Position numbers and translations under genes: made by a program. A stretch of 64,000 nt of DNA from Curvularia clavata (lineage: Eukaryota), in contig CP089276.1 of assembly GCA_023920165.1 (NCBI GenBank), forward strand, positions 4,030,001 through 4,094,000. The letters are read 5' to 3'. Of the stretch, positions 17,837-24,067 are shown in pieces. The notes under the pieces were generated by a model. The model saw only the letters and a program-made list of their open reading frames with translations, was not told the DNA's origin and ran no database searches. Position 1 is the stretch's first letter, and each line of letters begins with the position of its first letter.

Positions 17837-20800
17837 TCACCAGGCTGTTTCCCCGTGCACGTTTTCTCTCTGCTGGTACTCGGTCCACTCGGTACCTAGG
17901 AGACCCAAACCGCCGGACGTATAGGCCAAACCCTGTGAGAAGTTGTTCTCAGAAGAAGAGAACACTCTCCGCTGCGCTTCCGCACCGAGTTGCTCGACCA
18001 GATCCTTCGCAGCTATTTGACCGTTATTTTCCGCAAACTCTCGGGCTCTGCGGATTTGTTCGCCTCCATCTGACAAAATATTAACGTCTCGATGAAAAAG
18101 CAAGAGAAGCATATCTATTCTTCCATGCTCTGCTGCAAACTCAAATGCAGTTCTCCCCAGATATTTACTTCCCGGCGCATTGATGTCTGCGCCGTGTTCG
18201 ATAAGCATTTCTGCAATGCGGATAGAGCCAGCCTTAGCAGCATATTGGAGAGCAGTTCCCCCCTCCCAGATGCAGGGCGAGCCATTGACATCAACCCCTT
18301 GCTCCAGAAGAAACTTGACAATTTCGAAATTACCCAGCTCAACGGCCAGCTGCAGAGCGGTGCGATTGATGCGAAGTATTGCACCGAAATTGAGATTTGC
18401 CCCTGCGTTGTGCAGAAGCTTGACCATGTCAAGATTTCCAGTTGATATTGCCTTCAACACAGCGTTCAATCTGCCTTTATTCGAAAACTCGACAGTGCTG
18501 TTAGGATTGCCGTCAGAATCCAGCAGAATTTGTACGACCTTGATATTCCCAGTGGCGATCCCTTTCCCAAGTAATGAAGGGAGGTACCGAGTCATAAAAC
18601 CGTCGTCCCTGAGGTACAATGTCATATTAACATCAACATGTCCTACGAGCATCCTGACCAGTATTTCGTCTTTGTTTTCGATCGCCTCGCGCAGCGCTGG
18701 AATGGCGAAGGTTTTATAACCATTAGGATATCGCTGGCAAAACGAAACAAGAATAGCTCTGGCCAATTTACAAGACTTCTTTGCAGCAGCTTGAAGTGCA
18801 CAGGGATCATTTGGATCCGCGCCATGGTCGAGCAGATACTGAACGAATTGTTCGTGACCACATTGAACTGCTTCTTGCAGAGGGGAGTTGTTGTTCATAG
18901 GAGAGGTGCCATCAATATCCGCTCCATTTTCGAGCAGGCACCGAGCAGTTTCGTGATCCCCCTGGCGAACGGCCTGTTCAAGAGGTGTCCGGATCTCCCA
19001 TCTGAATGACCGTAGTTGCAGAGGCCGAAGAGCAGTTCTTGCTCCACTGACACTAACACCGGCATCGATCAACAATCTTAGAATATCGCGATCGCCCCAG
19101 CGTACAGCGAGGTAAGCAATAGCTGTTTCAGATTCGGTTGAGTTGGTTGAATTGAGGAATAGCTCAAGAAGCCGGGCGTTGCGTGTCAGGATAGCGGCAG
19201 CAATACTAGTATAGTTTGGTCGTACTCCAGCCATCATGAGAAGCTCGACAATGTCATCGTTCCCCCCCAATGTAGCAGCAGCCACCAAAACTGGGAAGAA
19301 TGGGTCCCTCACTTCAAATTTCCCTATCCCCATCGCGAGGAACTCTTGGACTATATCCTTGTTTCCCACTTCAGCCGCCGCGAGAATTATGCTCCTAATA
19401 CACTCTGGGCTTATATATGCTTGTGATGGGCCGTAGCTTTTGAAAAGAGTGACTATCTCTTGACGTCCATATCTAATGGCTTCGGCAAATGGCGTAGTCG
19501 GGCAAGTTTCGAACGAATAGCCTTCCAATAGAGCTGAATCTACTGCTGAAGGGAAGATCCTCATAGGGCCTTTCCCTCCAAAATCCAACGAGAAACCTCC
19601 AGGGAAAAGGTCGTGGATTCCAACACCTAGTTGTATGTACCTCTCGACCAGTACGAGGTTGTTACCGTAAATCGCATTATAAAGACATGCCAAGTTCGGA
19701 GTCAAACCAGATTCCAGGCAATAGTCAACTAAGCTGATAATGCCCTGTTTGGAAGCAATCTCAAAAACGAATTTAAGATATTGCTCAGCGCCTTGGAGCT
19801 CTTCTTCGAGAGTGAGGCCTTGAAACGCTGACTGTAATACTGCAATGACCTTTTCGGCTCTGCAGAAGCCCAAAAAATCAGAAATTATGTTGATTGATGA
19901 GAAAGATTCACCGGCGAAGTCGATTGGAAGCTTGTTATACTGTATGTAGACATCTAGTACAGTTTCGCATCTCCAAAATCTAGAACTCTCCAGCATTCTT
20001 ATGGGAATTCTAGCCCGAGCTTCCAAGAGGTATCGTAGAATGCCGCTGTCTATTGGCGGGCCATTTACCCCAGATGACCAAGGGATGAGGCCAATAAGAA
20101 TATATATGGGACTGGAAGATGGATTCTGATGTATCGTCTGGTTAGGATTCGCACCTGCGTGTAACAAGATCTTCACAATTTCGAGACTACAAAACTTGCA
20201 TGCTAGACCGAGAGGCGTATATCGACGGCCACCAAAGCGGCAAGTGACCCGATTGATATCAAGACCTCTTCGTAATACTGCACTGACGAGGACTGGTATA
20301 TTAGACTTTATGGCGATGGTCAGGATGCTTTGCTGCAGCGCCGCGGCATACAGATGCGGTAGGGCGTCCAGGATATCTTCCATGTGAGCGACAGAAAATT
20401 GTCTGACCTGTTCAAATATGGTATCAAAGGCTGCATAGTCAGAGCCAGCGAAATTGTTCATAAGCAGATATAGTATCTGCTTCAATATGACCACATCCAC
20501 AGAGCTTCTCTGAAGTTCTTGACCGGGTTCGCCAGGGAGCAGATGCTTCGTTTGGTTGATTGAAGCGAGAATCTTCGATTGATTGTTTCTGAAAAGAGCA
20601 CGAAATCCACGGAAGAATGGTTTATTGAGATCCGTAAACAAAGAAATAGTGTTCTTGGGTATATAGAAAATATCCCGAAACTCTGCTATACCTGAAAAAG
20701 AGGTCGACGGGCTTCTTCGGATGGGCGTAACTAATGGCAATGTATCCGAGTGAGGAAAATGCGGGGACGTATCCCTGTGGAAGTTTGGTGTTGGGTGATC

Positions 20801-21468
20801 TGAAAACACTCTGTTGTAGAGATTATTGAGGTTGTTCGTTTGATAACAATTGTGACTTGATTCCAGATTCCAGGGTTCTTCAGGAATAAGTAAGTTGGTG
20901 GGAAAGTCTGTCGTTTGTGGGTCGTCCAAGTAGGTGCCTTGGGCTTCCAAGCTGACAATCGTCTCTTCCGCCTCATCTTGATACTGATTCTCTTGGTTCC
21001 CGTCCTCTTGATCTGATTGAACCTCAACGCCGGGAGGCAGTTCTCTCTTTAGACAGCACTCTCTATTCGTCTCACATTTCCTATAACGGGCTGTCTCTTT
21101 TCTCACTTTTTCATCGGCGAGGCATGTTCCATGGGCATACACGCGGCTGAAAAGCCCAGCCTCGTCTCGTTCCTCTATAATACGGCCTAAAGTATGCCAG
21201 GTTTCACGGGTCAATTTCTTCTTGAAACCCCATCGTATGAACTGAGATTCATATTGTGGTTTGCTTAGAAAAGTAGATATCAGCTTACAAATCACACAGA
21301 AGAATTTGTAGAGTCTCACCTTGCAGAGAAGCCTTTCAGTTTCATGAGTTCAATAACACCGCCTTCCCCCTTAAGGCTCTTGCCTTCAGACAAATAAAGA
21401 TTTTCGATCGTGTCTTTATGACTCTCCCATTTCGTTTGGGATATCCTGGGATGATTTTTTTTCGGCAT
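17837..21468 (-). CDS. Clr5-domain / ankyrin-repeat protein (about 1190 aa)
   Basis: Exon 1 (21468-21320) MPKKNHPRISQTKWESHKDTIENLYLSEGKSLKGEGGVIELMKLKGFSA, intron 21319-21264, then SKPQYESQFIRWGFKKKL. This matches the Clr5 pattern W..HK..I..LY..E..SL..V...M...F.AS..QY...F..WG..K. Many ankyrin repeats follow (TPLGLAC, TPLEQAV, SPLQEAV, TALQLAV, TALQYAA, TAFEFAAEHG). Confidence 0.9.
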
Positions 21469-21571
21469 GACTAAGATACAAATCGTAAGGTTGAGAAGAA
21501 AGAATTGGGGTAATGTCTTATAAGCTGCTGTTGAGAGGAAATCAAGCAGTGGTTAAATACCAGGTCGAGCA

Positions 21572-22283
21572 ACAGATTCTAGGAAACAGAATCTGGAAGA
21601 AGGGTTGGGAAACCAGAATCTGGAGTTGGGCATCCTAATCAACAATCCAGATTCTGGAATTCAAGCTTGGCGATTGGTTAGGCGTCTCTACGCAAGCCCT
21701 TCAGAGGTGCAAGGCTGAACCGTCCTCGCTTCACCGGTCTGCCCTCTGTCGTTTGATTCGAGCGGTAAACGCTGCATGCATCAGCCACAATGTGATATGC
21801 GCAACACGTTGCAGCTGAGTTGCATAGAAGCCATCCAGTAGACTAGACGCAAACCAGAATCTGGATTTCGCTACGGCTGCAGATTGTGGTGACGGCCTCA
21901 TTCAGTCTTGGATGCCACGTCGGTTCCACGTCAGCGGCCATACTCTCTGTCCTGAGTATGTCGGAGAGAATTGTTTTCGGCAGCACAACAATAACGTCTG
22001 TTACAGCTGAAACCATCGAGGTGGGTGCGTGTGAAGGGGTAGGTGGTTGATAGCTGATCTCTCGGAATGTCGGAATATCGGAAACGACTATCACTTCCCC
22101 TGTTACTCATGTCTATTCCAGAATCTGGATATTTGCAGAAATTGGTACAAATTCGAATATCAGATTCTGGAACAAAGCGGAATATGAGTATCACTACCAG
22201 ATTCTGGATATACTGCGCCACAAAACATGATGCGCAACGCCTTCATCGCTTACTCTGGGAAGAAAACCATGACCAGTTTCTGG
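21572..22283. promoter_or_regulatory. Array of palindromic CCAGA(A/T)TCTGG sites in a divergent intergenic region
   Basis: Perfect copies at 21613, 21647, 21854, 22118 and 22197. One-mismatch copies at 21586, 22160 and 22273. Two-mismatch copy at 21572. Confidence 0.85.
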
Positions 22284-22430
22284 TTTAGAGGTAAGTATCT
22301 AAATGGTGACCTCCATTGCTATTCTGAAGTCTTCACGGCACATACCCTCCATCAAGTGCGTGTTGTAACTACTCTAAATCCTTGAACAACACATAACATA
22401 ACATCTCCTTCTCGAATATCATTCAAAAAC

Positions 22431-22713
22431 ATGAGCAACTGGTCCCTCGAAGCGCGCATAGCCCTCATAGCTCTATTCGTGCAACCTACAATACCCGCCC
22501 TCGCTCTCTGCGCCAGGATAGCATGGCGAAAATGGTATCCTCGACGCGAAAGTAAGATTACTTGGACACAGCATGTGCAGCAACAAACTAACATGCTCAG
22601 CCGTCCCCCTGACGTTACTTCCACTACATCATCAGCGCCTCCCAACAGTGCTTCCGCTACCGCAATATCGAAGCCTCCTGACGAGAACATGGACACTGCA
22701 TACATATGTATAA
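22431..22713 (+). CDS. Small single-pass membrane protein (77 aa, spliced)
   Basis: AAACATG start. Exon 1 (22431-22551) MSNWSLEARIALIALFVQPTIPALALCARIAWRKWYPRRE has a hydrophobic helix followed by a basic patch. Canonical intron 22552-22600 (GTAAGA..CTAAC..CAG), exon 2 to TAA 22713. Probable 5'UTR intron 22291-22329 (GTAAGT..GCTAAT..AAG). Confidence 0.7.
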
Positions 22714-22807
22714 CCACATTGAAGGGAACCTGTAACAATACAAAACTGGGTTGGCGTCAATTATTTATACCAATTACAAAATACATTACATGCATCTCGT
22801 ATTACCA

Positions 22808-24067
22808 TTATCTCTTTCCCACAAAACGATCCTTGTCTACCAAAACCCCCCTTGCCATCTCCAACTGCTCATCCGTCTGAACAACCAGCGTCTTGTACCT
22901 TGCACCATCCGCAGTAATATCCGTGACGACATCTTCAACCTGCGCTTCATTCTTCTTCGCATCAACAGCGAAACCCAGACACTTGACGCCCTGCACCACT
23001 GCCTGCCTGAGCTTGGTACCCTTCTCTCCGATCCCTCCTGCAAAAACAAGGGCATCGACTTCTCCATCCAGCTTTGTAAAGTACGGACCGACGTAGTTGA
23101 GAATGCGGTCAACAAAGATGTTGAACGCAAGTTTGTCCTCGTGCCGATCCGAGGAGCTGATTTTGCCGAAGTCCGTGGTTCCTGTTAGACTCTTCCAGCC
23201 GCTTTGCTTGTTCAGGATCTCTTCGGCTTGGGTAATGTGCATCTTCTCGCTTGAGCTGTGCGACGGCTTTCCCGCGTTGTGCGTGTAGTGGAACATCAGT
23301 GATGGGTCGATAGAGCCCGAACGTGTGGCACCTGGTAGGCCAGCGAGAGGCGTCAAGCCCATGGTGGTGTCTAGAGACTTTCCGTTCTTGATGCAACATG
23401 CCGATGCTCCGGAGCCAAGATGCAGGGCAATAATGTTGACCTGATCGACTGGCTTCTTGAGATGCTCGGCTACAGCGTTGACGATGAATGAGTAGCTGAT
23501 ACCATGGAATCCGTATTTTCGAAGTTTGTTTCTTTGTGCCACTTTTTGATCAATGGGGTACGTGCATATGTAGTCGGGTAGCGTATTGTGGAATGAAGAG
23601 TCAAAGTAGGCAATGTTCTTAGCATGCGGCAAGGCCTCTGCTACTGCCCGGACAATGGTAAGGGCTGGGGCATTGTGAAGTGGCGCCAGATCAGAGAGCT
23701 CCTCAATGTGATGGTATGTTTCCTTGTCGATGACCTGACTTTTGGGATAATCTCCACCATGTACAACGCGATGGCACGTGAATCGAATGTCATCTGTGTG
23801 GTTCAGCTCTGTAAGGCCCTTGTCGTTGGTCAGGTGCTCGAGGATGTATCGAAACCCGTCTTCTTGGGATTTAACATTCTCTAGTTCTTTTCCTTTGATC
23901 TTCTCGTCGCCACGCTCATACTTAAGTTTCGCAGGCGGTGCGGTTAAGCCTTCGACTGTCGCTTCGGCCAGCTGGACGGGCACCAAGGAACCGTTTTCAG
24001 GTGTCTTGTATACCGATATCTTGACACTAGAAGACCCTGCGTTGATCGAAAGGATGATTTCCGGCAT
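22808..24067 (-). CDS. ackA: Acetate kinase
   Basis: Signatures ILSINAGSSSVK, HRVVHGG, LAPLHN, KYGFHGISY, HLGSGAS, TRSGSIDP and LVFAGGIGE. Confidence 0.97.
   Translation of the reverse strand: MPEIILSINAGSSSVKISVYKTPENGSLVPVQLAEATVEGLTAPPAKLKYERGDEKIKGKELENVKSQEDGFRYILEHLTNDKGLTELNHTDDIRFTCHRVVHGGDYPKSQVIDKETYHHIEELSDLAPLHNAPALTIVRAVAEALPHAKNIAYFDSSFHNTLPDYICTYPIDQKVAQRNKLRKYGFHGISYSFIVNAVAEHLKKPVDQVNIIALHLGSGASACCIKNGKSLDTTMGLTPLAGLPGATRSGSIDPSLMFHYTHNAGKPSHSSSEKMHITQAEEILNKQSGWKSLTGTTDFGKISSSDRHEDKLAFNIFVDRILNYVGPYFTKLDGEVDALVFAGGIGEKGTKLRQAVVQGVKCLGFAVDAKKNEAQVEDVVTDITADGARYKTLVVQTDEQLEMARGVLVDKDRFVGKR

Follow-up and report, generated by a model that had tools for sequence, protein, structure and literature searches.

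Repeated copies of a near-palindromic 11-bp motif upstream of a Clr5-ankyrin gene in Curvularia clavata: a candidate cis-regulatory module

Promoters built around clusters of repeated palindromic sites are well known. The GAL1-GAL10 divergent promoter contains four Gal4 sites, aflatoxin-cluster promoters contain repeated AflR sites, and in such clusters a dimeric factor reads the sites, which work jointly. The zinc-responsive element of Zap1, ACCTTNAAGGT, is present in the regulator's own promoter, an arrangement that provides autoregulation. This study analyzed an array of the 11-bp motif CCAGAWTCTGG (W, A or T) at positions 21572 to 22283 of a 64,000-nt stretch of Curvularia clavata DNA (contig CP089276.1, positions 4,030,001 to 4,094,000; the whole stretch is hereafter called the window, and all positions refer to it). 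The array occupies the upstream region of a gene encoding a protein with a Clr5 domain and ankyrin repeats (the Clr5-ankyrin gene). Similar to the Gal4 and AflR clusters, it comprises several dyad-symmetric sites with irregular spacing in approximately 0.1-1 kb of DNA between genes. By contrast, the Gal4 and AflR sites are pairs of CGG/CCG triplets with a variable spacer, whereas the array lacks CGG and has only one verified flanking gene. The array shares with the Zap1 element an 11-bp palindrome with two 5-nt arms and one free base, present in multiple copies, but its sequence is different and the Clr5-ankyrin gene encodes no zinc-finger domain, so the link is geometric only. The array is a new example of a familiar design and not a new kind of system, and it opens no long-standing question. 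On balance, we lean towards reading it as a cluster of repeated putative sites through which one sequence-specific factor would control the transcription of the Clr5-ankyrin gene.

The motif was counted in the window and in 100 shuffles that preserved the dinucleotide composition. Five perfect matches were found, at 21613, 21647, 21854, 22118, and 22197, compared with an average of 0.05 in the shuffles, none of which had more than one. Allowing one mismatch added copies at 21586, 22160, and 22273. The expectation for the resulting eight copies was 1.37, and the richest shuffle had 4 (0 of 100 shuffles with at least eight); all eight were confined to the 698 nt between 21586 and 22283. With up to two mismatches, the window contained 34 matches; 10 belonged to 21572-22283, and the remaining 24 were dispersed, never exceeding two per kb. 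An unbiased search of the 64 kb for 8-10-mers clustering within 1 kb returned words derived from the motif in all top clusters, with 6-8 copies each, whereas unrelated words of this length reached at most three copies per kb. These results bear out the original prediction, made from the sequence alone, of five perfect and four near-perfect copies; the latter comprise three copies with one mismatch and one with two. Its statement that no perfect copy occurs elsewhere in the window holds as well, even at one mismatch.

The nine copies form a left cluster, a single copy midway, and a distal cluster. The left cluster starts with the degenerate copy ACAGATTCTAG (21572-21582, two mismatches) and continues with ACAGAATCTGG (21586-21596, one mismatch) and the perfect copies CCAGAATCTGG (21613-21623) and CCAGATTCTGG (21647-21657). 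Between the two clusters stands a further perfect CCAGAATCTGG (21854-21864). The distal cluster is opened by another CCAGAATCTGG (22118-22128), followed by TCAGATTCTGG (22160-22170, one mismatch), the perfect copy CCAGATTCTGG (22197-22207), which has a GGATAT flank in common with the 22118 copy, and CCAGTTTCTGG (22273-22283, one mismatch). The copy-to-copy spacings are 14, 27, 34, 207, 264, 42, 37, and 76 nt.

The 11-mer is self-complementary except for its central base, which is A in four copies and T in five. Because the remainder of the motif is its own reverse complement, orientation is defined by the central base alone, and the copies described earlier as lying in both orientations differ in nothing else. 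The central base appears tolerant, being A, T, or, in a relative referred to here as organism B, C; the most constant part of the copies is the inner CAGAWTCTG. A near-palindrome with two 5-nt arms around one base is probably the type of site that is recognized by a dimeric DNA-binding protein. Such a factor would probably bind as a dimer, with the arms CCAGA and TCTGG contacted on either side of one loosely constrained base. The flanks do not follow this mirror symmetry: A precedes the 11-mer in seven of the nine copies and A follows it in seven of the nine.

The position of the array relative to expressed RNA was determined from the assembled contigs of two runs, X4 and X8, which belong to two studies. 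The Clr5-ankyrin gene lies on the minus strand at 17837-21468, with its ATG at 21468 and its stop at 17837. Exon 1 (21320-21468) is followed by a 56-nt intron (21264-21319) that splits the Clr5 domain and by a long second exon that runs to the stop; Pfam identified Clr5 in the first exon (E 1.9e-08) and ankyrin families in the second. The spliced contigs of both X4 and X8 skip 21264-21319, with the joint 21263->21320 and the borders CT..AC, which read GT..AG on the minus strand. Because both runs carry the spliced intron, we took them as RNA, and the identical joints in two studies confirm the intron and the expression of the gene. The 5' ends of these contigs fall at 21593 (X4) and 21592 (X8), inside the 21586 copy; such ends are approximate, not exact, transcription start sites. 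The apparent 5' leader thus extends over 21469-21593 of the minus strand, is approximately 125 nt long if the contig ends lie near the true 5' end, and contains no ATG.

These ends place the degenerate 21572 copy and the 21586 copy in the transcribed leader and the perfect copies at 21613 and 21647 in a promoter-proximal position, their centres lying approximately 25 and 59 nt upstream of the contig ends. The whole array is non-coding and falls between the start codon at 21468 and the next candidate open reading frame (ORF). The motif is over-represented in a short non-coding stretch that spans the start of an expressed gene, as approximated by the contig ends, and reaches upstream of it. RNA cover from X4 and X8 is absent over 21594-22166, from which we draw no conclusion. 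The assignment of a promoter TATA element fared less well. The TATAA is present, at 21519-21523, but it lies inside the leader, and the RNA contigs cover it and extend approximately 70 nt further upstream; a second, downstream start that uses this element could nevertheless exist. The original prediction of sites for a dimeric factor therefore keeps its core, namely an array far beyond chance in non-coding DNA at and upstream of the mRNA 5' end, and loses support for the TATA assignment and for the bidirectional picture discussed below.

If the copies are binding sites, the two proximal perfect copies (at approximately -25 and -59) sit where the pre-initiation complex assembles. A factor bound there could define or activate the core promoter, or it could occlude the promoter as a repressor. 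Further upstream, 266 to 685 nt from the contig end, the midway copy and the distal group would add occupancy as upstream elements, and they might additionally serve a candidate divergent transcript. The copies probably arose in part through local duplication, after which the spacers would have diverged and the core been preserved. The partial duplication origin is suggested by the period-14 trace at the left end of the array and by extended flanks common to some pairs of copies. That the cores are perfect although the spacers between them are unrelated speaks for selective retention.

Several observations weigh against a regulatory module. Within the window, the upstream regions of the other genes contain no CCAGAWTCTGG with one mismatch or fewer, and no broader group of target genes emerges. 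The whole 2501-nt segment compared with organism B (DNA run X3) is collinear in one piece and approximately 97% identical, with 81 substitutions and four small gaps, and a relative at this distance is too close to show conservation. In 21471-22039, the part for which the substitutions appear to be listed completely, 2 of 20 substitutions fall within motif copies (21580 and 21859), which appears to be about the neutral expectation. One of them, 21859 A>C, changes the centre of the midway copy from A to C in organism B; the other, 21580 T>C, affects the already decayed 21572 copy and occurs in runs X3, X4, X8, and X12. In a more distant relative (a contig of the large mixed run X12, with a loose end at 21605), the 21586 copy is decayed further. 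The A flanks on both sides of the copies may fit descent by duplication as well as protein contacts. No locus among those listed from a metagenome scan, described below, aligns to the window (blastn, E<=1e-3). Finally, binding itself, cooperativity between the sites, and the looping between clusters that had been proposed are pure inference.

The alternative with the best claim, which we nevertheless consider unlikely, is that the array is neutral debris: a 13-14-nt unit (AACAGAATCTGGA), perhaps accompanied by a unit of approximately 40 nt, would have expanded by slippage and decayed, and the copies would be functionless survivors. Tandem Repeats Finder (TRF) detected a weak period-14 array at 21571-21624 (54 nt, four copies, 63% matches, score 41), and the distal spacings of 42, 37, and 76 nt are near multiples of approximately 38-40. 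The same-sense A flanks point in the same direction, as do the longer identities of certain pairs: 17 of 18 nt (AAACCAGAATCTGGAKTT) are common to the copies at 21613 and 21854 (a repeat family with 94% identity), and CCAGAWTCTGGATAT is common to those at 22118 and 22197. Such extended flanks indicate copying instead of independent origin for part of the array, and they qualify the earlier description of the flanks as unrelated, which remains true of the spacers at large. However, TRF found no regular array beyond those 54 nt, and a tandem repeat or minisatellite was rejected as an account of the whole because the spacings otherwise range from 27 to 264 nt with no constant period. The earlier view that this is not a tandem repeat thus applies to the array overall, which is irregular, but not to its leftmost 54 nt. 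Slippage also cannot account for copies 207 and 264 nt apart. Moreover, the five 11-nt cores are perfect while the spacers retain no residual similarity, and uniform decay should not spare the core alone. The location of the array exactly at a promoter is a further point against functionless debris.

An origin from a mobile element appears improbable. In such a case, the two clusters would be the subterminal repeats of a non-autonomous transposon (hAT, CACTA, or Mutator style) or of a miniature inverted-repeat transposable element (MITE) of approximately 500-700 bp. The subterminal repeats of class II transposons indeed consist of a short motif in two clusters some hundreds of nucleotides apart, and the clusters here are separated by approximately 500 nt. 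Two inverted pairs were also found, 21640-21660 with 22115-22135 (21 nt, 90%) and 21610-21623 with 22273-22286 (14 nt, 93%). These inverted arms, however, consist of the palindrome plus a few bases; the array has no terminal inverted repeats beyond the motif, and no target-site duplication was read beside either pair, on which grounds a class II transposon or MITE is disfavoured. No transposase-like ORF is located nearby, and the region occurs only once in the 64 kb. The locus is collinear in organism B with small gaps only, which shows no insertion polymorphism against a 97%-identical relative and indicates that the array is not a recent insertion. Derivation from a transposon subterminal repeat had been named as one of the findings that would overturn the original prediction, and the locus bears no such signature.

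Returning to the reading of the array as a cluster of sites for one factor, we considered a special case in which that factor is the Clr5-ankyrin protein itself, binding the palindromes as an autoregulatory operator through its N-terminal Clr5 domain. We regard this as doubtful in the extreme, and the fuller claim, that Clr5 is a small helix-turn-helix (HTH)-like DNA-binding domain and that the protein recognizes a GAWTC-centred palindrome and autoregulates its own promoter, as marginally less probable again. If true, it would provide the first DNA motif for the widespread fungal Clr5 domain family. In favour of autoregulation, the array is confined within the 64 kb to the upstream region of this gene. 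Because the Clr5 domain in the window is split by the intron, residues 1-113 of P0002, a relative with 76% identity over exon 1, were modelled from an alignment of 22 rows; the named relatives of P0002 are from Pyrenophora teres. The predicted Clr5 region comprises three helices (residues 11-27, 38-44, and 51-61), with block means of the predicted local distance difference test (pLDDT) of 77-86 over residues 11-60. The overall model was mediocre (mean pLDDT 64).

An exhaustive structural alignment (VIA) of this model returned 7 of 48,161 chains with Z>=5, and small DNA-binding domains of the HTH or winged-helix type made up nearly all of the best matches. They included the AhrC N-domain (Z 5.5, root-mean-square deviation 2.5 A, 58 residues aligned) and the DNA-binding domain of GcrA (Z 5.2, 1.9 A, 48 aligned in a 49-residue chain), and further matches were the ArgR N-domain, PadR, and sigma-54 RpoN, with Myb R2 and Tc3 near Z 4. 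All Z values, however, are 5.5 or lower, and a Z below 8 may mean a common helical arrangement only. Foldseek gave no match at E<=0.001, a profile search of PDB sequences returned ankyrin designs and weak pyruvate kinase matches but nothing for the N-domain, and neither DNA binding by any Clr5 domain nor a biochemical role for the domain was found among the literature matches listed. The structural lead is weak and suggests at most that Clr5 might bind nucleic acid. GcrA is reported to prefer methylated cis-elements, and two papers on it concern GANTC-type elements (PMC5887438, PMC9976885). The overlap of this GANTC with the GAWTC core of the motif may be coincidence, and we do not rely on it. 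Separately, the protein library contained many "proteins" of 50-90 aa that are the Clr5 first exon read into the intron (for example, P0001, P0005, P0007, and P0019).

A purely RNA-level role, in which the leader copies 21572 and 21586 pair as a hairpin at the 5' terminus and thereby influence translation or stability, the remaining copies being incidental, can be set aside as highly improbable: folding of 21469-21600 (minus strand) does give a 9-bp stem between the two copies, but the fold is no better than shuffles (z -1.05; 31 of 200 shuffles as good), the RNA contigs end within the upstream arm at 21592/21593, relatives carry substitutions in both arms, and at most two of the nine copies would be explained. 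A search of Rfam gave nothing at threshold, the sole match, mir-2208, scoring 21.3 bits (E 0.22) where the gathering score is 70. A cruciform was rejected since the DNA hairpins of single copies are too weak (-2.2 to -3.3 kcal/mol). Given the weak folding and the absence of an Rfam match, a protein site in duplex DNA fits the array better than a structural element does.

The motif was further compared with established classes of site. The AP-1/Gcn4 basic leucine zipper (bZIP) site TGA(C/G)TCA and its 13-bp Maf-type extension resemble it as odd-length palindromes with a single centre and a GA-N-TC core. The array differs in having A and T swapped at +/-3 (AGA.TCT versus TGA.TCA) and W in place of S at the centre, and this class was rejected because the core is AGA(A/T)TCT in eight of the nine copies. 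The CC/GG extension is, to our knowledge, unlike any bZIP half-site. The heat-shock element, built of inverted nGAAn units, is approached by the copies at 21647, 22118, and 22160, which with their flanks contain TTCnnGAA; the other six of the nine copies do not have two units, none has three contiguous units, and the conserved CC..GG ends are foreign to that element, which was therefore rejected too. A Zn2Cys6 (Gal4-type) site was likewise rejected: neither the 11-mer nor its conserved flanks contain CGG or CCG, and TCC-N7-GGA on both sides is found in two of the nine copies.

Another sequence in the same upstream region would fit a Zn2Cys6 site better than the 11-mer does. A second short repeat, unrelated to the motif and detected by both TRF and the repeat search, occupies 22058-22085 of the plus strand (TCGGAATGTCGGAATATCGGAAAC; unit TCGGAATA, 2.8 copies). 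It comprises three CGGAA units with 8-nt spacing (TRF period 8, 92% matches) and lies 35 nt before the distal cluster. We take it to resemble a direct-repeat site for a Zn2Cys6-type factor, and it would be a second candidate element upstream of the Clr5-ankyrin gene.

If the copies are real binding sites, the array provides a tractable cis-element, with nine copies of an 11-bp core at one promoter, for finding a fungal transcription factor. It could also help in learning what controls a member of the Clr5-ankyrin family, which is large and functionally obscure.

The right-hand side of the array is less clear. The original prediction had placed the distal cluster beside a small gene and envisaged a bidirectional promoter. 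That gene is a candidate 149-aa ORF (22431-22880, plus strand), whose last approximately 70 nt overlap the coding end of the acetate kinase gene on the opposite strand. Its start context looks favourable, its N-terminus includes a hydrophobic stretch, and a candidate in-frame intron of 48 nt is present at 22553-22600 (GTAAGA..ACTAAC..CAG), but the RNA contigs list no splice joint for this intron. No Pfam family was found, and a search of proteins of 81-261 aa gave no homologue at E<=0.001; the ORF is an orphan gene or else no gene at all. The acetate kinase gene (22808-24067, minus strand; Pfam Acetate_kinase, E 3.3e-103) is convergent on the array. RNA contigs start at 22167 in X4, inside the 22160 copy, and at 22380 in the other study, and they continue through the acetate kinase gene; this RNA may be the 3' untranslated region of the kinase or a divergent transcript. 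The bidirectional picture is accordingly not sustained, and the secure part is that the array occupies the region upstream of the Clr5-ankyrin gene.

The other genes of the window, which include F-box, isochorismatase, cofilin, mitochondrial carrier, Cid1-type polymerase, and kinase genes among others, are ordinary ascomycete genes. Two Fungal_trans regulators lie approximately 20 kb from the array. Acetate kinase and phosphoketolase genes are often linked in fungi; no phosphoketolase gene appeared among the Pfam matches of the 40 larger ORFs of the window.

The occurrence of the motif outside the window was surveyed in the literature and in metagenomes. Among the matches listed, the exact 11-mers occurred in the full-text literature in what appear to be primers, constructs, or unrelated sequence, and the motif spelled with degenerate letters (CCAGANTCTGG, CAGANTCTG, and the W forms, as well as AGANTCT and AGAWTCT) occurred there in one unrelated paper and not as a regulatory element. 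A metagenome scan for two motif copies 10-40 nt apart returned at least 121 loci. It is no evidence either way on other fungal target genes. In four phage-like contigs, groups of 2-4 copies of CCAGAWTCTGG(A) were located within an ORF that encodes an HTH_36 domain (L001, 4001-4106; L045, 2946-3049; L052, 813-856; L074, 4001-4104), and in L045 and L074 this ORF additionally contains Phg_2220_C. The ORF adjoins DnaC-like and DnaB genes or a Dam methylase. A fifth contig (L028, 3934-4040) has the same repeats beside DnaC-like and DnaB genes and ends before any initiator ORF.

This layout is that of lambda-type origin iterons inside an initiator gene, and its relation to the fungal array is one of analogy, not homology. 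The phage-like sets use the same word, in sets of 2-4 with 30-50-nt spacings, and are presumably bound by a dimeric HTH initiator (HTH_36, Phg_2220_C). Unlike the fungal array, which is non-coding nuclear DNA between intron-bearing genes, they lie inside the initiator ORF of a bacterial virus, and blastn of these contigs against the window found no similarity beyond the motif word. By analogy, they show only that the word would be workable as a repeated dimer-type site for an HTH protein, and they say nothing about the fungus. Phage or plasmid replication iterons were rejected for the array itself, the neighbours of which are the Clr5-ankyrin and acetate kinase genes in an ordinary ascomycete window.

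The metagenome loci with the most copies (L105, L034, L007, L085, L116, L029, L119, and L121) were satellites with even spacing or repeats in coding sequence, and their periods were 21, 30-31, or 41. L002, L007, L029, L071, and L072, which come from one metagenome record series, as well as L105 and L116, are satellite-like arrays with 21-50-nt units that contain CCAGAWTCTGG and are unrelated to the window.

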